From: a virus
IMG/VR virus record: IMGVR_UViG_3300049043_000244
Location: 20,029 to 84,028 of that record
DNA: 64,000 nt
Strand: one strand, 5' to 3'
Shown: piece after piece, positions 15,977-26,984 of the stretch
Layout: each line of letters begins with the position of its first letter
Position numbering within the stretch: position 1 is the stretch's first letter
Position numbers and translations under genes: made by a program
Notes under the pieces: model-generated
The model's database searches: none
Seen by the model: only the letters and a program-made list of their open reading frames with translations
What the model was told of the DNA's origin: nothing

Positions 15977-16242
15977 CAGAACATCAAATTTGAGCAACGA
16001 CTTGTTTTTTTAAGAAAATTAAGTTGAGTTGCCTCACATCTAATTTTTTCTTTAAGTGGTTTTGAAATAAGTTTCGACACAGATTCAAATTCAATTCCAT
16101 TTTCTTCACAATATGTGACAATAGCTTCAATATAATTGATTTTTGAAGTGGAGACTAGATATTCAATATCCTGTGCAAACTTAGACTGACAGAGAAATTT
16201 TTCTTTTATGAGTGAATTTACATCTTCAGTGTTATTCTGCAT
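15976..16242 (-). CDS. gp33: late transcription coactivator gp33
   Basis: FAQDIEYLV...INYIEAIVTYCEENGIEFESVSKLISKPLKEKIRCEATQLNFLK. Confidence 0.9.
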   Translation of the reverse strand: MQNNTEDVNSLIKEKFLCQSKFAQDIEYLVSTSKINYIEAIVTYCEENGIEFESVSKLISKPLKEKIRCEATQLNFLKKTSRCSNLMF

Positions 16243-16918
16243 GAGTTCTTGTTTCTGTTTTGTATGTGACAAATTCTCTAATGTACTTGGTAAGAAGTTT
16301 AATATAGTGACCCTTGTTTCTTTTTTCATAGACGAAGCATTCTCCATTGTCAGCGACCATAATAGTAATCAATTTTTGGACTGGAATACCAGTCATTTCA
16401 TAATACATGCAAGCATATGCTGTTTCCTGGACAAAATAGTTTTCAATCCATTCTTCAGGTTTAATTTTCTTCGAAGTCTTGAAGTCAATAACTGCGAGCT
16501 CTCCCTCGTACTCTGCGATGCAATCAACTCTGCCCGCAAGTCCCAAGTAGTCACTATAAAGTGACTTTTCTAAAGCATGTATATTATTTATACGATCTAG
16601 ATAGGGTTTAGCTGCAAGAAAGAGAAACTTTGTAACAGGAAGAGGATTGTATTTGTCAATGTCTTCATTTAACAAATACTTCTCAACAATATCATGGAAC
16701 TTGGTTCCACGATCTGTTGCAACCTTAGTGATCTTATTGGCTTCTTCCTCACCAACTTTCTTACGCCACTCAACAAATTTCTGTCTGCCATAGAAACTGG
16801 TCACAGAAGTAATAGAAGGGTATAACTTACCAGAAGGAACTCGATAAAATCGAGTCCCCTCTATCATTTCTAACCTCCAAATCAACTTCTTCTTTTAAAT
16901 AATCTAAGTGAACAAACA
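16232..16918 (-). CDS. PD-(D/E)XK exonuclease (cyanophage exonuclease A-like)
   Basis: YPSITSV...RGTKFH...LAGRVDCIAEYEGELAVIDFKTS; next to phoH. Confidence 0.9.
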
Positions 16919-17678
16919 TTACATACCTAAACCTAATTTAGCAACAATATAGTTTTTGACAAGTCCAGAACGAACGATATCATCAACTCCAAATTCTACC
17001 ATGGAAAAATCATATTCCATTGCACGAATAATTTTCATAAAATCAAGAATCCCATTTTTTTCATGGGTTTTAACAAGATCGGATTGAGTAGCATCACCAC
17101 AGAATACAATCTTACTATTTTCACCAATACGAGTAATTATACTATCTAATTCGTGAAAGTTCAAGTTTTGCATTTCATCAACTAACACGATTGCATTATC
17201 GAGAGTTGTACCACGAATAAAACTTGTTGACCAGAATGAAATCGTCTCTTGAGCTTTCAGATTACTATAGAGCATCTCGAAGTCCGCATCTGAAGGCAAC
17301 TCAAACATGTACTTACACATGTTCTTATATGGAATTTGGTAGAGTGAAGATTTATCTTCATGATCTCCAGGAAGAAAACCGATTTCTCTTGTAGACACAA
17401 GAGATCTTACAATATAAACCTTTTCATAGGGTGTTCTTTCATCTAGAACATCTTTAAGTGCAAGATAAAGCCCAACGAATGTTTTTCCTGTTCCTGCGGC
17501 ACCATAGGCAAAAATATTTTTGCCTTTTTTATATTCATCAAAAAAGATTTTTTGATTATCAGTTAACGGAGAAATGTCCGTCATTGAATCAGAATTAATT
17601 GGTTTTTTACGGCGCATTTGTTTTGCGCTCATACCGATACCAATGTTGCCGTTTGGAGGACTTTCTTGATCTTGGCAT
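16919..17678 (-). CDS. phoH: PhoH-family ATPase
   Basis: GAAGTGKT Walker A, REIGFLPGD, FIRGTTL, DEMQNL, GDATQSDL. Confidence 0.97.
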
Positions 17679-17679
17679 A

Positions 17680-17929
17680 CTAGATCTTCTTTACTCGTGA
17701 ACCAGGTGCTTTTCGAGCTTCAGTGAGAACATCATTCCAGCCTGGATTTCTGGAAATGAGTTTGTCTTTCCACTCGCCGACTTCACCCGCATTAGGGCAT
17801 GTAGATGGATCGCTCCAATCTCTGTCCCAATTCCGGATTATTCCTCTTCCACTGATCCCAGTCGTGAACACTCATCGACACTTCTTTCTGTTCGCCAGTG
17901 GATTTATTAATAACAGGATAAGTCGCCAT
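17680..17929 (-). CDS. conserved cyanophage small protein upstream of phoH, frameshifted
   Basis: MATYPVINK.TGEQKEV...WDRDWSDPSTCP..GEVGEWKDKL. Confidence 0.65.
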
Positions 17930-17962
17930 GAAATTTAATGTAGTTCAAGTTATAATTATTTA

Positions 17963-18808
17963 TTACAAAACCTTATGAGCAATGTAACTCTGAGAGGAGA
18001 TTTGTTCTATGTTCCACTTTATTATAGGCTTTACATAATAATCGTCATCCTTTTTTAATTTAAATTTTTTGTAGTTGATTCTATTGTGTTTTTCTAAAAT
18101 TAATTTATGAACAACATTATCATCATCAACATTGTTGTACTTTTTGATGTGATCTCTAATTGCGACTTCTAAATGTTTTTTCTCATTGTATGCTTGAAAT
18201 TCTTCCACTCTTTTCTTGGTTAAATGTGGCAAAGAAAAGAGAGTTTTTTCATCAAATTTGATATTCACGTGTTTTAAACCTAAGAGTAAAATTCTCTCAT
18301 AAATTTCAGTATCTTCCCAGGCAGCAATTTATTCATGTTTTCATTGTATCCACCAATTTTAAAGTAATTTTCTTTTGATATGTACAAAGTACCCCAAAGT
18401 GGTTTTAAATACTTATAATTTTGATAGACATGTTTTGGATCAGACTTTGCATTTGTAAAATGCCAAGACTCATCTGTACCTGTTAAAAATGACTTATCAT
18501 CAATAGTATGATGATCAAAAAAATTGAAGTATGGATTCATGACAGTATCTGAATCCAATTTTAAGATATAATCACTCTCAACTAAAGATGCGGCTAAGTT
18601 TAATGGTTGAGGTTGATTGAAATATGGTTCTTTTGGAACAGTGATGATCTTAATTCGACTATCTAATCGAGTTAAATGATTGACTGGTTTATCAGAATTC
18701 CAATCTGTTACGATGATTTCATTAACCTCGTCAAACTGAATCCATGAACTTATAGAAATTGTTAAAGCTTCACCCTGTTTTTACAGGCAGATATTATCGA
18801 AATACTCA
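17963..18808 (-). CDS. GT2/GT7-like glycosyltransferase (paralog 2), frameshifted
   Basis: YFNQPQPLNLAASL, LKLDSD, LWG.LY...IGGYNEN; paralog of upstream gene. Confidence 0.7.
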
Positions 18809-19650
18809 TATTTTGACAGTTCGTATAATTGATCACTTATTTGGATGACTTCCCATTTATAAATTGGTTCCGAATACCAATCTACGTTTATTTCTTCATC
18901 TGGATTTTCTTTTGGTTCTAAATTAAGAACTTGAGTCATTCTAGATGATATTGGATATACATTATGATTTTTATCTTTAGATAATTTTGCAATATATTTG
19001 TAGAGATCGTCACCCACCAAATCTTTTCCAAATTCACTTAAAATTTTAGTTATACTATTAAAGGATTCAAAATTTTTTACTCGATCTTGATCTGTATGAG
19101 GAATATGTAGGGCAGAACACTTTTGTATATCAATTAGAATTGGATCGAGGCCATAGGATATTAATCTTACAGCCAACTCATCATCTTCCACTGCATAATA
19201 CTTCCCATTATTTTCATTATATCCACCAACTTTTCTAAAAGTTTCGGTTTTTACATACAACAACCCCCAAAGAGAGTGTAAAAAATGAAAATCCATTCCT
19301 TCTAACAAATTGTTAGATCCTGACACAAAAGATTTTTCTGTAATTTTATGAATATCAAAAAAATTAAAATACGGATTTAGTATGTGATCACAATCCAATT
19401 TGAGAAGGTTTTCATTTTTAACTAAAGATGCAACTAAGTTTAATGGTTGAGGTTGATTAAAGTATGGTTCATTTTTTACATTAATAATTTTTATTTTTTC
19501 ACTTAAAATTGTTAGATGATCTATGGATTCATCCGAATTCCAATTTGTTACAATAATTTCATCAACCTCATCAAATTGCATCCATGAAGCCATGGACATG
19601 GCTAGGGGCTTATTTCTATTTTTACATGCGGATATTATTGAAACTGACAT
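18781..19650 (-). CDS. GT2/GT7-like glycosyltransferase (paralog 1)
   Basis: MSVSIISACKNR...LKLDCD (DxD)...VGGYNEN..YYAVEDDELAVRL. Confidence 0.8.
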   Translation of the reverse strand: MSVSIISACKNRNKPLAMSMASWMQFDEVDEIIVTNWNSDESIDHLTILSEKIKIINVKNEPYFNQPQPLNLVASLVKNENLLKLDCDHILNPYFNFFDIHKITEKSFVSGSNNLLEGMDFHFLHSLWGLLYVKTETFRKVGGYNENNGKYYAVEDDELAVRLISYGLDPILIDIQKCSALHIPHTDQDRVKNFESFNSITKILSEFGKDLVGDDLYKYIAKLSKDKNHNVYPISSRMTQVLNLEPKENPDEEINVDWYSEPIYKWEVIQISDQLYELSKYEYFDNICL

Positions 19651-19865
19651 TTTATCGGCTGATTTCAAGTTCTGAATAATCTAATTTTTGAAGTTCTTCT
19701 GGTTTAATTTCTTGAGTTTTGAACTCTCCGTTTTCAGTATATTCAATGATATATTTGTCGGGCGTCAGCTACGATCGTGCATGAAGTCCAAACTTTGTCT
19801 TTTGTTACTGCCTGTGTTTGGTAATACATGTTACCTCCTTAGGGGGCATTGGTATATATCACCAT

Positions 19866-20495
19866 TCAAGCCTCAGAAACTGAAGGAAATTGTTGTTTAA
19901 AAACTTCTTTACAATCAAGAGCAATATCCATATGTTCTTTCTGAGTTCCATGAGCAGAACGAAGGTTGATATAATGAATCCAGTCTACCGACAAGATCCC
20001 GTCATATAGATGCGTGTGGGGGTCGCCAAGGGCAATACAAACCTCGCGCACTCCTTTGCTACCCCAGCTCCAACATCCTCTTGTAGAGGTTATTAGAGTG
20101 CGTAAACAGTTCAGCAATTTCTGTCTGAAATTTGAGTTTTACATAATCACCAAGATCATCTGTAGAATTTTGACGATTCTTGGTGTCCTGACGACGAAGA
20201 TCGGGAATCGGGATGTTTTCCGTCAATAAGGTAGTAATCAGCGATATCGTTGAGAGAACTCTTGAAATGTGAAACTACGATGGCGTAGGATCTGTGCCTG
20301 CAATACCACGAGTCGTCTCAATCTCAAGGGTCATAGAAGACTGTCTCAAACACAGACCAATGATTATGCTTAATACAATAAGCAATGCAACTTGGCATAG
20401 TTTTCGTTGTCTTGATTCGCAGGATTGCTAACTCGTGCAATAAACGCCATTGTTTTTTCTGCATCGGGAGTTACCGAAATAAGTTTTACTGTCAT
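19866..20495 (-). CDS. thyX: flavin-dependent thymidylate synthase, frameshifted
   Basis: [24 protein letters not shown] motif, [17 protein letters not shown]. Confidence 0.93.
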
Positions 20496-20507
20496 TTAAT
20501 TCCTCAA

Positions 20508-20675
20508 TCAGGGTAAGCCGTCATCATCTTCAAAGACCTCATCATAATCAGAGATGTGATCTTTATGTTGTTTTATTTGTTTATAAGAATCTAGATCAGA
20601 ATAAATTTCTGATTTTAATGCATTTAGAAGCAATTCCATGTTTCTTACAATCAATTTAAGTCTTTCTTTATCCAT
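20508..20675 (-). CDS. conserved hypothetical protein
   Basis: MDKERLKLIVRNMELLLNALKSEIYSD read from reverse strand. Confidence 0.55.
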   Translation of the reverse strand: MDKERLKLIVRNMELLLNALKSEIYSDLDSYKQIKQHKDHISDYDEVFEDDDGLP

Positions 20676-20706
20676 GATTATGCATAATCTCTAACTATTT
20701 TACTAC

Positions 20707-20732
20707 AAAAAAAGGAGGGTGTAAACCCTCCT
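20707..20732 (-). terminator. intrinsic terminator closing the riboswitch-DUF4278 transcript
   Basis: AGGAGGGT-GTAA-ACCCTCCT hairpin with U-tract on minus strand. Confidence 0.8.
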
Positions 20733-20836
20733 GAGTATCATCTCGTTCCAACTAAATGTACGATTTTCAGCTTGGTGACGACGATCTTCTTTTTGTTTTT
20801 GTTCTTTAATAAGTTGAAGGAAGTTAAGTTTTTTCA

Positions 20837-20998
20837 TTTTAAACCTCCCTTTGACTTTTCCATTGAAAACTTATATCCGTTTTCATCTACCCAGAACATC
20901 GTTCCACGATAGATTTCCACATGAGGTTCTCTTTTAAAAGTTTGGTTTGGGCGATCGTTGGTGTCATATTCCACACCACGATATACGACTTTAGACAT
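20837..20998 (-). CDS. DUF4278-family small protein (family includes GS-inactivating factor IF17-like proteins)
   Basis: MSKVVYRGVEYDTNDRPNQTFKREPHVEIYRGT with two YRG motifs; AGGAGA RBS. Confidence 0.75.
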
Positions 20999-21028
20999 TA
21001 GGTTTCTCCTTAATTTTGAGGCTGAAGA

Positions 21029-21248
21029 GCGTTCCTTCAGTCGGCTTTTTGCGTCTATGAAAAACTTACAAGTCTTTGGAGATCCTTCTTTAAAAATCTG
21101 AATGAGTTCAGATCTTTCAGCTCATCCATTTTTAGTTTTACATTACCAATAAGTCTTTGACTTGTACACAAGTCCAGAGAATTGTTTCCATAGATGAACG
21201 ATCCGTTCCGAGTCGGCTTACTTCCGTCTGGTTTTCCAGATGAACGAT
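21029..21248 (-). ncRNA. tandem glnA-motif (glutamine riboswitch)-like RNA; second unit has ~130 nt expanded P2 loop
   Basis: Minus strand: AUCGUUCAUCUGGAAAACCAGACGGAAGUAAGCCGACUCGGAACG, then AUCGUUCAUCUAUG...CAUAGACGCAAAAAGCCGACUGAAGGAACG; directly upstream of DUF4278. Confidence 0.8.
21037..21191 (-). CDS. ~50 aa ORF nested inside the riboswitch (METILWTCVQ...ELIQIFKEGSPKTCKFFIDAKAD), with read indels
   Basis: ATG inside 5' strand of P2; TGA stop within the conserved GCCGACUGAAGGAACG. Confidence 0.55.
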
Positions 21249-21254
21249 AGGAAT

Positions 21255-21308
21255 ATTATACTTCCCGTGATCTTATATAGTCAAGTACTTTTGTAACTTT
21301 TGTTACAA
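21255..21308 (-). promoter_or_regulatory. sigma70-type promoter (TTGACT-18-TATAAT) with upstream NtcA box TGTA-N8-TACA
   Basis: -10 at 21255-21260, -35 at 21279-21284, TTGTAACTTTTGTTACAA at 21291-21308. Confidence 0.75.
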
Positions 21309-21559
21309 TTTTATTTAACTTTGCTGGATAATTGTGACTCCAACTCATTGATACGACTGAACTCATAATCAAGCTGTTCCGATTTCTCGTGAAGAATATC
21401 CATGAGATCATCGTAAACCACTTCAATATCTACATAGTCATTGAAATAAGTTTCAAGGCTACCCGAAGATATCTTTTACGATTCCATTCTGGGGAATAGG
21501 GTTTATATTCCATGATAAAAATATTGTATGCGATTATTATAGGTTATTTGGTGATTATT

Positions 21560-21880
21560 GTCAATCTCTTTGGCACAGTCGTCTGGTTTATCTTCAGTCC
21601 ACCAGTCAACCATATCATCTACACTGTCAAATCCACGTTTACCAAAACGATCAAATCCAGTTCCACCAATATCAAGTTGGTTCAAAAAATCATCCATATC
21701 TCCTTCTTGCATGTTGGGATTTTCGGATGTTCTTCTAGCCTGACGAAGCAGTGTTCCCGCAGTGCGATTTTACCTTTCCAAGTTTCTCCACCAAATCATA
21801 TCTTCCAAACTCACCTCTTCATGTTTAGCAATTTTATTGCAAATACCTTCTAAACGTAGGCGATATTGTGTAGAGAGCAT
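21560..21880 (-). CDS. conserved cyanophage hypothetical protein
   Basis: MLSTQYRLRLEGICNKIAK...DDFLNQLDIGG. Confidence 0.65.
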
Positions 21881-21902
21881 AATTAATCTCCATATAAGGT
21901 TA

Positions 21903-22619
21903 TTTAGATTGTACTAAGTACATCAATGGTCGGAAACCATCCAATACTTTTCATGAGAGAAATGTCTACAACGTTGTCTTCCCTCTCTCCTGGAGTTTCT
22001 TCTAGAACTGGAAGATGTCCTTGTCCAAATGCTTTTCCAAGATCTCTTACAGAAACAGATTTTCCAGTTCCAATCGTAACTGGGCCCAGTGATCATCACT
22101 ACTTGCAAGATGCCGAATTGCACGACAAACATCTTTTACGTGAATCCAATCGCGTTTATGATTGGTTACATATTTTGCCTTTCCGTCCTTTAATAGATCA
22201 TACATCATGTTTCCACGACCACCAGGGCCGTAAACAGTTGTAAACCTCATACCAACTGAATTGGAGGAGCCATTTGTTCATTAATCCACTTAGTCATCGC
22301 ATATGGATTAGTCCAGTATCTTTCTTCAACTGCGCTTGAAGAAGCATAAAGAAGTCTAGTATTAGTTTTTCTACACCACTCAAACAAAGGTTTTGCAAAT
22401 GCAACATTGTTTTCGTAATATTTTTGAGGATTTTCTTGACTTTCACGAATGTCCGCATATGCAGCTAAATGAATCACAAGATCATAATCTCCCCCAGAAA
22501 AATCTCTAACATCGTCTGGACGATCCAATCCAGTTACCCATTGATTATGAGTTTCTCTCCAATCATTAAAAACATGTTTACCAATAAATCCTTTATGTCC
22601 AGGTGATTAAAACTTTCAT
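21903..22619 (-). CDS. NAD-dependent sugar epimerase/dehydratase, frameshifted
   Basis: MKVLI.GHKGFIG, VIHLAA, YASSS, YAMTK (YxxxK), RDWIHVKDV. Confidence 0.85.
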
Positions 22620-22632
22620 AAAATATTATCTT

Positions 22633-22954
22633 TCAATATAACTCAAAGTATGATTTGATAGCATTTAATTGTTCTATAATTATATCACAACCAATCTTTG
22701 GATCGCAATCACCACAGGTATAAACATCACATGCGGCTTTACCATCTTCTGGCCATGTATGGATACTTATGTGACTTTCGGATAATAAACAGAGAACCGT
22801 TACTCCTTGAGGATCAAACTTTTGAAATATCGTCTGAAGTACAGTTGCACCACTCAGCTGATGCTGCACTACTCCAAAAGATCCATAAGAAATGCTCATC
22901 GTTCAGGTGACCGAATGAGCATCCAAATAGGTTAAGAAGATAGTGTTTGCCCAT
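22633..22954 (-). CDS. speD: S-adenosylmethionine decarboxylase
   Basis: KFDPQGVT..LLSESHISIHTWPE...DVYTCG. Confidence 0.93.
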
Positions 22955-23128
22955 CTATGTAGGATTATCCTCCTGATCCTTGAGTAAACGACTGACGATT
23001 TGTTCTCTCCCGTCCATCATAGACTGCTGTGTAAATAGAAGATCTCATATACCTTTTAATTTTTTTATACTGTTTTTTAACTTCTTTAAGAGCATCAAGA
23101 TTCATCTCAATGTTCATATCACCAGAAA

Positions 23129-23386
23129 TCACCTCTTTCTCTTCTTGTCTGGGGGTTGATAATTCCAAGTTTTTGGATTGATTGTTCCTTCTGTCCATTT
23201 AATACCTCTTACATCCCTATATTTGTCCCAATAAAAATTAAAAATGTCATACTGAGATCCAGCCTGAACAATATCATATTGCGTTTCTTCATCTACACCA
23301 TAAGATACTAAATACGAATTTCGTGGTAAATCACGATTTTTAGCAGCAGATGGATCACAATCCACATGAATAATATTCACGGACAT
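23129..23386 (-). CDS. conserved cyanophage hypothetical protein
   Basis: IIHVDCDPS...LPRNSYLVSY...DIFNFYWDKY. Confidence 0.6.
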   Translation of the reverse strand: MSVNIIHVDCDPSAAKNRDLPRNSYLVSYGVDEETQYDIVQAGSQYDIFNFYWDKYRDVRGIKWTEGTINPKTWNYQPPDKKRKR

Positions 23387-23387
23387 A

Positions 23388-23900
23388 TCAAGAACGATTC
23401 CCCCACTGAATATCAGGATACGCCTCTGAAACAAGTTCTTTGGTGATATTGTATTTAGTTTGTAATTTTTTATCCTTTACAAGACATAACACTTCAGCTT
23501 CTCCTGGATGAAAGGACTCTAGCATATTGATGAACATCGTTTCTTTGCGAAGTTTGTTCATTGCGTCATTACCACCCTTTACAAAGTTATAGAACTTACT
23601 CCATTCTTTGCGAATGTTTGAGGATGGGGATTTTTCAGCGTTTTCACTTTCTTGAATTGGAACTTCACCTTCAGGAAGAACTGATATAATAGAATCATCA
23701 AAGTTCCAAATCAAGAGAGATTTAAGGAAATTTTCATTGTATTGCTGAAGGATTCCAATTTTTTTATCCTTTGTTCTTTCTCCAACTACAGCTCGCAAGA
23801 ATCTCATGAACATATGATGTTGGGGTGAGTTGAATTTTTTCTACTCGATTTTAAAGCAGTAGAAGTAGTAATATTTTTTGCAACGGGAGATCTCGCAGTT
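23388..23900 (-). CDS. conserved T4-like hypothetical protein
   Basis: LIWNFDDSIISVLPEGEVP...ETMFINMLESFHPGEAEVL; start uncertain. Confidence 0.6.
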
Positions 23901-23912
23901 ATTCTAGATCTT

Positions 23913-24143
23913 CTATTGGTTGTCGTCGTCTTCTTCGTAGTCGTCATGGCTGTTTTCAAATCGTACTGCAATTACTTCGTCTGGAATAAGATTTCCATTA
24001 CCATCAAACATTTCTGGATGAACAAATACTTGTTGTGGAGTAGAAAAAACCACATGTTCTTTCCATAACCATCCAATTATACCACCAATCATTAGGAACA
24101 TGAAAGATACCATGCAAAAGATGGCAACTACTGGTGCTGCTCA
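23913..24143 (-). CDS. membrane-anchored cyanophage hypothetical protein
   Basis: TM segment then HPEMFDGNGNLIPDEVIAVRFEN. Confidence 0.6.
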
Positions 24144-24343
24144 TGAATTTGCCTCCGAGAGATTTACTTGTTTTTTATATCGAATGAAAATTCAAAATAG
24201 ATGTTTATCTCTCGTTTGAGGAGAGTAACCATCTTACCAAAACTAAATTGAAATGTTTTTGGTTCTTCAGGCGTACTCCTCCTTTTTCTTAACAACAACT
24301 CCACACCTTTATTTATGTGGAGCTCATTATCTCCACTCATAAT

Positions 24344-24580
24344 TTAAATTAATGAAAGAACTCTAAGATAGTCAATAGTATCTTTACACCCACCAATATG
24401 TTTATCATCCATCACAACCTGCGGAAATGTAGATCCATTACCAAATTCTGAATAAAATTCTTTTTTAGTAAAATGTTCATCAAGAGTATAAACAACATAG
24501 TCCTTTCCACACAGTTCAAGGACTTTTTTTACTTTATAACAATATGGACAATCTTGTTTTGAATAAACAGTGAACTTCAT
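24344..24580 (-). CDS. nrdC: glutaredoxin
   Basis: CPYC active site, TFPQV, IGG. Confidence 0.9.
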   Translation of the reverse strand: MKFTVYSKQDCPYCYKVKKVLELCGKDYVVYTLDEHFTKKEFYSEFGNGSTFPQVVMDDKHIGGCKDTIDYLRVLSLI

Positions 24581-25323
24581 TTCATTTGTGATATTTTGTA
24601 ATATTTAGAACTGTGAGCTCAGAAATAATACACCAAAATTAATATTATGTCAATATATACTATTCATCCAATGGATACCAGTTCTCCAAGTTTTTGTATC
24701 GGGGGTGTCACATTTTAGATTCCAAGAACGAACTAAAAGTTCCGTGAACAATTCCATTTTTTCTGGGCAGACAGACGCTGGATTATCATTGATTGCATTT
24801 TAAGAGCTGCCAATTCTTTCCATTCTAAATCCGTAAGTTGTTCAGTCTTTGGTTGTGAGTAACTCATTAGGTCTCCTGCGATTGTGTTCAAATTCTAACA
24901 CAATCTTATGTCATTATCTATAAACTTAATAATCTCTTTGGGATTACGTTACATTACTTAATGAACTTATCTAATGCATCAAGATCATCTCGAAGTTCTT
25001 TTTCTTTTTTGATCATGGTAATAAGACCACAGAGCATTATGAACGTCCATAAGGTGATCTACCCAGAAACCAGAGGGATAAATTCCAGAGCATCTTGAAG
25101 ACCACGATGGCTGGTTCCTTCTTCTTCTCCCTACACATAATGTAGCAGATTGCCTGAATCATATCAAGTTTATCTTCTTCAGAAAGCATAAAATACTTTC
25201 CTACTGCTCTCTCCTTTGCCTCTTCATTTGACTTCTGAAGTTGTTTGTAAGCATCTGAATCCCACCACTCTTGTAGTGCATTTACCAAGATTATTTGGTT
25301 TTTGTAGTTCTTCTGGATTTATC

Positions 25324-25808
25324 ACTGGTTGATTTTCATCCATAATGATACTGTCTCCATTCTTCAACATTGGTTCGTTTCGAGATCAAAAATTATTTTG
25401 TTTAGTGGGGCTTTTGGTTTTCGCATTAATTTCATTCCCGTATGTTCCAAAAGCGTATTCCTTTTTGGTGTTACAAGAACTACATGCAACTACTAGATTT
25501 TCCCAAGAATCATCTCCACCCCGAGAGCGAGGAACTATATGATCTATAGTCAATTTAGATCTAGCTCCACAATACTGGCAAGTATTATTATCTCGTTTGT
25601 AAATCATTGAACGAGATGGAGAAATGTCCATTATTTTAGATAATGGCAATTTCACATAGTCTAGGAGTCGTATCACTCTACTTGAAAGCACTTAACTTTT
25701 CTTTGAGGAGAAGAACAATAACTCTTTCCAGTTTGTAAAATTGATTGGTTCATAACTAGAATTTAAAACCAATACCGTTTTATGTGGTTCTATTGGTAAC
25801 TCATGCAT
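25324..25808 (-). CDS. HNH endonuclease (McrA-like)
   Basis: [10 protein letters not shown]...[37 protein letters not shown]. Confidence 0.9.
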
Positions 25809-26984
25809 GACCTTTTATAGGACTATCATTAACTATCTAGTCAAGTTCCAAACGGACCCCAACGACCCCTTTTACCATCCTCATCACCATTCATTCTGCA
25901 CTTCAAGTTTATCAAGAATAGAATCCGTTGTCATTACAGATTCAATACGATCTCGATAAGCATCTGCAATCACGCTTACCAAACCATCGGGCGTTCTTGA
26001 CGAGCAGCATACGCAAGTGCGTTGCGAAGAGCTTTGTTCTGACTTCTTTAAAGATTCTTCAACAGATTGTGATAGTACAGTTAATTTAAGTAGTAATTTT
26101 TGATCGGATTTGTTGGAATTCTTCCACAATTTCCAGAATTCTTCTAGATGTTTTCTTTCCTCTTCTTCATTCCAACTGGGTTGAGAAACACTTAAAAGAT
26201 AATGATAAATTTCATCTGAAATTGCATCTATAAGTTTATCGTAATTAGTCATTTTTTTGCATTGTATAAAAAATTGTGGTAACGAAAGAACCTCTGTATT
26301 TTCTAGATCCTTACAACGAGGATAATAAAATCCAGTCACTATAACAAGCATCTTCTGGGTCTTGTTTATCATATTTTAACACATAGTTCTGGTAGTTGTC
26401 TAAAATTACAGAGTTCTCCTTGCATCTTGATGAAGTTATCAACGCATAGTCTACTTACAAACAGCAATCCCGCGAGAAACAGTAACCGAAGTCAGCATCA
26501 ACACCCATACATTCCAAGTGGTTCAGTTACCTTCTGGGGGTAAGCAGAACCATCACCTTGATCCACCCATTACATGTGACCTTCTATCAATTTACAGCTA
26601 ATGATCAGGGATGATACACAATAACATTTCATCAGGTAATCTTTGACTTCAACGACAGATAAGAACCCACTTCTACCCTGTATCCACCCATTCAATCATA
26701 TCACCTTCTTTCAGATTTGGCTACAGTCTTACCAATCATCGGGAGACTGATACGCACATATACATCTTCAGTCGAGTTGGATCATTTCATCTTGTGGAAC
26801 CCATTCTACAGCGACAGAAGCCATTTTCGACTTTCCCCGTTTATATTCTTCTGGATAATAATTCTCTTCCCAGAAAGTCATTCCAAGATTTTTGACACTC
26901 TGAAGATGGATCATCTTTATCGCAAAGAGAAACTTCCAGTTGAAGTGTATTGATGTTCTGTATCACCATCCACGCATACATCAC

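Follow-up and report, generated by a model that had tools for sequence, protein, structure and literature searches.

A small-protein gene nested within a tandem glutamine riboswitch in a putative nitrogen-sensing cassette of T4-like cyanophages

Results

Organization of the cassette

The window analysed here, by which we mean the whole stretch of DNA under study, comprises 64,000 nucleotides of a virus (positions 20,029 to 84,028 of IMG/VR record IMGVR_UViG_3300049043_000244). It contains a tandem glutamine riboswitch at 21248..21029 on the minus strand, the strand that also carries the other features of this locus. Together, these features appear to form a self-contained cassette in the order promoter, glutamine riboswitch, DUF4278 (IF17-like) gene, and terminator.

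Sensor unit 1 (21200..21248) reads CGUUCA, a short hairpin 1, ACG-G-AAGUA, AGCCGACU, C, and GGAACG-G. Hairpin 1 (21240..21227) is the compact UCUGG-AAAA-CCAGA that an earlier note on this DNA had picked out as P2 of its first unit. In a scan of the whole window against Rfam, unit 1 matched the Glutamine family (RF01739) at 40.2 bits (E 2.8e-05; gathering cut-off 35 bits). The same note had described a tandem glutamine-riboswitch-like RNA, and this description holds: unit 1 is RF01739, and unit 2 shares its core.

Upstream of unit 1, a consensus scan found a candidate sigma-70-type promoter by pattern only (TTGACT-18-TATAAT, 21255..21284, 11/12 matches), which puts the predicted transcription start close to the first base of unit 1. 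The -35 box is closely preceded by a GTA-N8-TAC palindrome (21293..21306) that resembles an NtcA box. The palindrome recurs at the equivalent place in the related loci L070, L031, and L103 and in phage DSL-LC03; its centre lies at about -51 from the predicted start, which does not match the canonical -41.5.

On the downstream side, the expression platform (21006..21029) carries a strand, CUCUU (21029..21025), that can pair with the Shine-Dalgarno (SD) sequence AAGGAG (21011..21006). Where GGAACG is followed by C, the sequence continues as CUCUU(UAA), complementary to the SD (UU)AAGGAG that precedes the DUF4278-like gene. The window's CUUCAG can alternatively pair with the core CUGAAG in predicted folds, and among the folds of 88 related leaders an 8-bp helix, CUCUUUAA/UUAAGGAG, recurs in relatives with C after GGAACG. 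Judged by its sequence, the CUCUU(UAA)/SD arrangement appears to match the gifB model, in which glutamine turns translation on (PMC6212724).

The DUF4278-like (IF17-like) gene itself (20834..20998) encodes 54 amino acids. Its product contains the YRGV motif, reaches 20.1 bits against Pfam PF14105 (under the 25.3 cut-off), and matches phrog_5049 at E 2.1e-09. The stop codon overlaps, as ATGA, with the ATG of a putative coding sequence of 44 codons, a basic K/R-rich ORF (20703..20837) for which we found no family match. Inside the 3' end of this ORF, a pattern scan located a terminator-like hairpin with a T run (20713..20732), which closes the cassette. Elsewhere in the window, the minus strand carries a PhotoRC-II RNA (RF01717; 46337-46432; 65.5 bits, cut-off 39), a known leader motif of cyanophage photosystem genes.

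A long-range hairpin in unit 2

Unit 2 begins with CGUUCA (21195..21200), the 5' strand of the inner P1, whose partner is the GAACG of either unit 1 or unit 2. It is followed by hairpin 2, in which the 5' strand UCUAUGGAAA (21185..21194) pairs with the 3' strand UUUUCAUAGA (21054..21063). This stem of 10 bp, one of them G-U, closes a 121-nt loop and corresponds to the long-range second stem that had been noticed earlier with its strands about 130 nt apart. Downstream of hairpin 2 lies the core CGCAAAAAGCCGACUGAAGGAACG, whose last base is 21030. The 3' core of unit 2 (21029..21053) consists of CG-C-AAAAA, AGCCGACU, GAA, GGAACG, and the linchpin C at 21029; at the junction, the window has one A more than all relatives. 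An AUG (21191..21189) sits in the 5' strand of the stem and a UGA (21039..21037) inside CUGAAGGAACG, so the two codons are where the earlier note had placed them, in the stem and in the conserved core.

The search with the Rfam glnA model, which had been named as a check on the tandem RNA, recovered unit 1 and left unit 2 unreported: even at E 10, there was no second glutamine match in 20800..21450, because the 121-nt insert is larger than the RF01739 model allows. Cores like that of unit 2 with a short hairpin score 33.5-40 bits against RF01739 in other phages. Weak matches to other families in 20800..21450 at E 10 (HOTAIRM1, bxd, freshwater-2, etc.) were rejected as chance. The predicted fold of the whole element is not more stable than those of shuffled sequences (z -1.58).

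Two scans of IMG/VR yielded 109 distinct long units, and CGUUCA was found 142-199 nt upstream in 107/133 IMG/VR loci with a unit-2 core. CGUUCA, ACG, and GGAACG are present in both units and invariant in relatives; exact-motif retrieval of these loci means that ascertainment fixes the core and the first pairs of the stem. At levels 3-5, the hairpin-2 stem is paired in 100, 95, and 94% of the 109 units, versus 77, 48, and 62% in shuffles, with at least four pair types at each level. Closing stems such as UCUAU/AUAGA, UCCCA/UGGGA, UCCUCA/UGAGGA, and UCCCUA/UAGGGA illustrate the covariation, which the earlier note had asked for and which is evident across the related units.

The nested gene in related phages

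In relatives, the hairpin-2 insert is an open reading frame. An ATG stands at +9 to +11 of CGUUCA in 109/109 distinct long units, the stop is the core UGA in 103/109, and the ORF has 49-66 codons in 108/109, the exception being the interrupted L092. Length differences among the nested ORFs always preserve the frame. Coding conservation, another check named beforehand, was found in the true frame only: the interior codons have a pN/pS of 0.24 and a median dN/dS of 0.15, against pN/pS values of 0.73 and 2.2 in the shifted frames. The nested protein has two invariant cysteines, C8 and C42, and keeps its helix pattern across very divergent members; an AF2 model consists of two helices (pLDDT 78). 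On these sequence comparisons, we conclude that the nested gene is real in the relatives.

Three of the four relatives tested (L047, L131, and L133) matched phrog_504 (E 7e-10 to 3e-4), and the nearest intact relative, L066, had no phrog_504 match at E 0.01. There was no match for the nested protein in Pfam and no usable one in the ESM Atlas, and BFVD gave fold matches to unnamed cyanophage proteins only, all of them weaker than E 0.001. Relatives of the protein fall into at least 153 protein clusters, none of which is reliably named.

The layout is also found in isolates. In DSL-LC03, S-SRM01, and DSL-LC02, the equivalent place is occupied by an intact ORF of 50-55 codons. It extends from the stem AUG to the core UGA in DSL-LC03 and DSL-LC02; in S-SRM01, GGA replaces the core UGA and the ORF is four codons longer. 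S-CREM1 has a short hairpin there instead, annotated as a glnA riboswitch. Prochlorococcus phage P-SSM2 has an equivalent layout with a UAA stop, and its PHROG 504 member, PCMG_00321, is annotated as a 'predicted protein'.

In the window's nearest relatives (L070, L072, and L018), hairpin 1 also contains a gene, a paralogue of 68 codons (L070 5608-5825) with a hydrophobic N-terminus, the C-(D/E)-A-x-x-L pattern that the hairpin-2 protein also has, and the stem UCCUAU/AUAGGA. Hairpin 1 of the window has a 4-nt loop at this place, so nested genes are gained and lost at the tips of the hairpins.

A few further observations concern the wider distribution. S-CAM7 has a free-standing gene of 49 codons (L124 701-850) that is weakly similar to the nested protein (E 0.03) and has no riboswitch around it; this gene may represent a relative that lives apart from the RNA. 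A scan of genome contigs with the tandem-junction pattern gave 120 loci, of which 118 were chance and two were real: L230, binned as an Acetobacteraceae MAG, and L270, from a Prochlorococcus SAG. Both are short contigs with the phage switch and the nested gene, and they are probably phage DNA that was mis-binned into or co-sorted with cellular genomes. The scan is silent on carriage by hosts. Near the glutamine switch of marine relatives, at a distance of a few hundred bases, there is a manA RNA (168-175 bits) along with a tRNA (L142 1071-1268, L162 4460-4732).

The reading frame in the window

The window's own copy of the nested small-protein gene (21037..21191; putative PHROG 504 family) reads as frameshifted. 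From the AUG at 21191, the frame meets a UAA after 17 codons, and the 152 nt from AUG to UGA are not divisible by 3. Pieces of the homologous protein can be read in three frames, with the N-terminus, the middle, and the C-terminus each in a different one; this copy is not translatable in one frame, and its homology rests on DNA and protein alignments. The ORF of about 50 codons described in the earlier note is therefore closed in the window, and it is in the related units that such an ORF is intact.

Relative to the nearest intact relative, L070, the nested ORF of the window differs by -1, -1, +3, and +1 nt. Similar differences extend beyond it: the window has about seven one-base indels per kb versus L070 (80-90% identical), and many L070 proteins (82-285 aa) match the window at 15997-25915 in two or three frames. 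At about seven indels per kb, roughly one is expected in 155 nt, so that three are no clear excess. Short-read DNA and RNA libraries yielded contigs of relatives with the intact version at all three indel sites; one relative's contig from an RNA library covers the nested gene, though contigs of this kind do not prove transcription. At most 12% of the window's words were present in any one sequencing run, and the runs contain relatives at about 92-93% identity. Given the indel rate versus its nearest relative, the breaks in the window's nested gene are most likely assembly errors. More generally, the IMG/VR record (84 kb, 39% complete) resembles an error-prone assembly, and broken genes in it need care. 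Contigs with a short hairpin (13-24 nt) that join 21049 to 21194 occur in runs X1, X2, and X6, which are lake metagenomes, so alleles with and without the ORF coexist there.

The breaks could also be real. In that case, the nested gene would be a true pseudogene in the window's phage, with the RNA scaffold alone kept and its stem lengthened to 10 bp. Three frameshifting indels within 155 nt plus in-frame stops would fit such decay, as would the interruption of L092 (1 of 109 related units) and the ORF-less alleles in the same metagenomes. We regard this as unlikely, however, since three indels are no clear excess at the rate seen versus L070, proteins of L070 match the window in two or three frames well beyond the nested gene, and the short-read contigs of relatives are intact at all three sites. 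Another reading, that the insert is a non-coding structured expansion of the hairpin, could appeal to the lack of an open frame in the window and to the local hairpins predicted there. It is scarcely credible in view of a fold z-score of only -1.58, an ORF kept intact in all but one of the related units with length changes in threes, and a pN/pS of 0.24 in the true frame alone. A further idea is that the ORF is a regulatory leader or coupling device only, where the act of translation and not the protein matters. Its stop, about 25 nt before the SD of the DUF4278-like gene, has the anti-SD strand within reach, and the C-terminal DAKAD is dictated by the RNA core. A function of this kind alone nevertheless seems very unlikely to us: the interior codons are under strong purifying selection, two cysteines are invariant and the helix pattern is kept in very divergent members, a paralogue occupies hairpin 1 of L070, L072, and L018, and S-CAM7 has a weak free-standing homologue outside any riboswitch.

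Interlocked cores or two separate aptamers

In glutamine-I riboswitches, a long-range G23-C60 pair acts as a linchpin (PMC6212724), and the ligand-contact bases of the glutamine riboswitch are C1, G22, C58, and G59, with CGUUC/GAACG as P1 (PMC6698751). The linchpin candidate in the window joins the two units, pairing G21224 of unit 1 with C21029 after unit 2. Across relatives, the position that follows ACG in unit 1 and the one that follows GGAACG in unit 2 carry C-G in 56 and G-C in 46 units, with mismatches in 0/102. These bases switch jointly at least seven times on a tree of ORF interiors; the sign test on well-supported branches has only four pairs (p 0.125), and phage recombination blurs the tree. 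By these alignments, both the hairpin-2 stem and the long-range linchpin pair covary. The parts of loop E are likewise split, with AGUA in unit 1 only and GAA in unit 2 only. Because they belong to different units, a loop E with AGUA opposite GAA is possible only in a swapped, outer fold. In addition, AGCCGACU of unit 1 can pair with AGCCGACU of unit 2, and an A-U to C-G double change in S-SRM01 fits this pairing. P1 and most core bases are invariant, so that local and swapped folds are indistinguishable at those positions.

The sequence patterns thus favour two interlocked sensor cores over two separate aptamers, since the linchpin pair is C-G or G-C in 102/102 units. If the units were instead two ordinary, independent glutamine aptamers in tandem, each folding locally, the second would merely tolerate a long insert. 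Several observations are compatible with this: unit 1 alone is above the Rfam cut-off, unit 2 with a short hairpin alone reaches 33.5-40 bits, tandem glnA RNAs are on record (PMC2864571), and in the C/G class (63 units) both local linchpin pairs are also Watson-Crick. In the window's class (48 units), however, the local pairs would be G-G (or G-A, G-U) and C-C, where the swapped pairs are Watson-Crick, and local folding would leave loop E unformed. Moreover, in short-hairpin relatives Rfam prefers a chimeric alignment of the unit 1 5' half with the unit 2 3' half, which scores higher (41-51 bits). We therefore consider separate local folding improbable and continue with the interlocked cores.

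Discussion

Proposed mechanism

We think it likely that the locus is a nitrogen-sensing cassette of T4-like cyanophages in which the riboswitch consists of interlocked glutamine-I-type cores, hairpin 2 houses a real gene, and the copy in the window was frameshifted, likely by assembly indels. The outer core would be a canonical aptamer to which unit 1 contributes its 5' half and unit 2 its 3' half, with the AGUA/GAA loop E and a G-C linchpin. The inner core, built from the two remaining halves (3' of unit 1, 5' of unit 2), would be circularly permuted and lie at the outer P3 tip. The gene of about 50 codons, whose predicted product is a two-cysteine helical-hairpin protein of PHROG 504, would be enclosed by hairpin 2 of this inner core. 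The AUG lies in the stem, and the last five codons together with the stop make up the aptamer core.

With this geometry, a ribosome on the nested gene would have to unfold both cores, and the folded, glutamine-bound RNA should hide the nested AUG. Points against this model are that a clear Shine-Dalgarno sequence is missing in front of the nested AUG and that, in the window, the gene is unreadable and the unit-2 junction has an additional A. Because a translating ribosome would unfold the sensor, folding and translation should be mutually exclusive, as the earlier note had argued; the argument follows from the geometry, with the start in the stem and the last codons and stop in the core. The footprint of a terminating ribosome should also reach the anti-SD strand and open that helix, as the nested stop lies about 25 nt before the downstream SD. 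As a net result, the nested protein and the IF17-like protein would be controlled in opposite directions or in a coupled manner. Opening of the anti-SD helix by the terminating ribosome could turn both genes on together, so that the switch is blunted.

More tentatively, the RNA might be a two-site interlocked sensor whose hairpin tips dock exchangeable, paralogous genes for two-cysteine helical proteins, with low glutamine yielding the nested protein and high glutamine the IF17-like glutamine-synthetase inhibitor. We find this possible, if doubtful; if true, one RNA would toggle between two phage effectors of host nitrogen metabolism.

Meaning

To our knowledge, the aptamers of riboswitches are regarded as non-coding. 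In this element, codons belonging to a conserved protein gene appear to double as the stem and ligand-binding core of a metabolite sensor, and sharing these bases would make ribosome and ligand compete for them. Marine and freshwater cyanophages commonly have this layout, the classic isolate P-SSM2 among them, and standard RNA-family scans report only half of it; unit 2 is missed in annotation because the cores are split and the insert is long. The cassette offers a testable case of translation-coupled riboswitch logic. It also points to two unstudied phage proteins with a probable effect on the nitrogen metabolism of their hosts, globally important cyanobacteria, in the course of infection.

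Comparison with known systems

The closest known system is the glutamine-I riboswitch (RF01739), as in the Synechocystis gifB/IF17 leader (PMC6212724) and the glnA RNA motif (PMC2864571). The cassette shares with it the CGUUC/GAACG P1, the ACG junction, the linchpin pair, an anti-SD strand beginning at the linchpin C, and tandem occurrence. It also has the AGUA and GAA of a loop E, which come together in the swapped fold only, and a DUF4278-like gene downstream that scores under the Pfam cut-off. It differs in that the canonical features are divided over two units that appear to interlock, that a translated gene, with codons that belong to the core, is housed in one hairpin tip (or in both, in some relatives), and that standard Rfam scans detect unit 1 alone.

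The glutamine-II riboswitch, or Downstream-peptide motif (RF01704; structure in PMC6698751), resembles the element in its CGUUCA-hairpin-ACGCA, GGAACGG, and ligand-contact bases and in its association with short ORFs. Its short ORF, however, lies downstream of the aptamer and not inside it, and its fold is a pseudoknot. RF01704 had no match in the window, and relatives scored 25-28 bits, under the cut-off of 33 bits.

Among catalogued protein families, phrog_504 matches the nested-gene relatives and includes a P-SSM2 member with an equivalent layout, but it is catalogued only as a hypothetical protein, and we found no description of its nesting in a riboswitch. Likewise, we found no paper on a gene inside a glutamine riboswitch in a literature search whose coverage of key primary papers is incomplete. 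Group I intron loops house homing-endonuclease ORFs, and SgrS/SgrT is a dual-function RNA. As in these cases, a protein gene occupies a peripheral loop of a functional RNA and is present or absent between close relatives. Unlike them, the RNA described here would be a metabolite sensor with no mobility function evident, and the ends of the ORF would form the closing stem and the ligand-binding core. Compared with the known glutamine-I riboswitch and its IF17 leader, then, what appears to be new, as read from the sequences, is the interlocking of two cores and the presence of a translated gene inside the aptamer.
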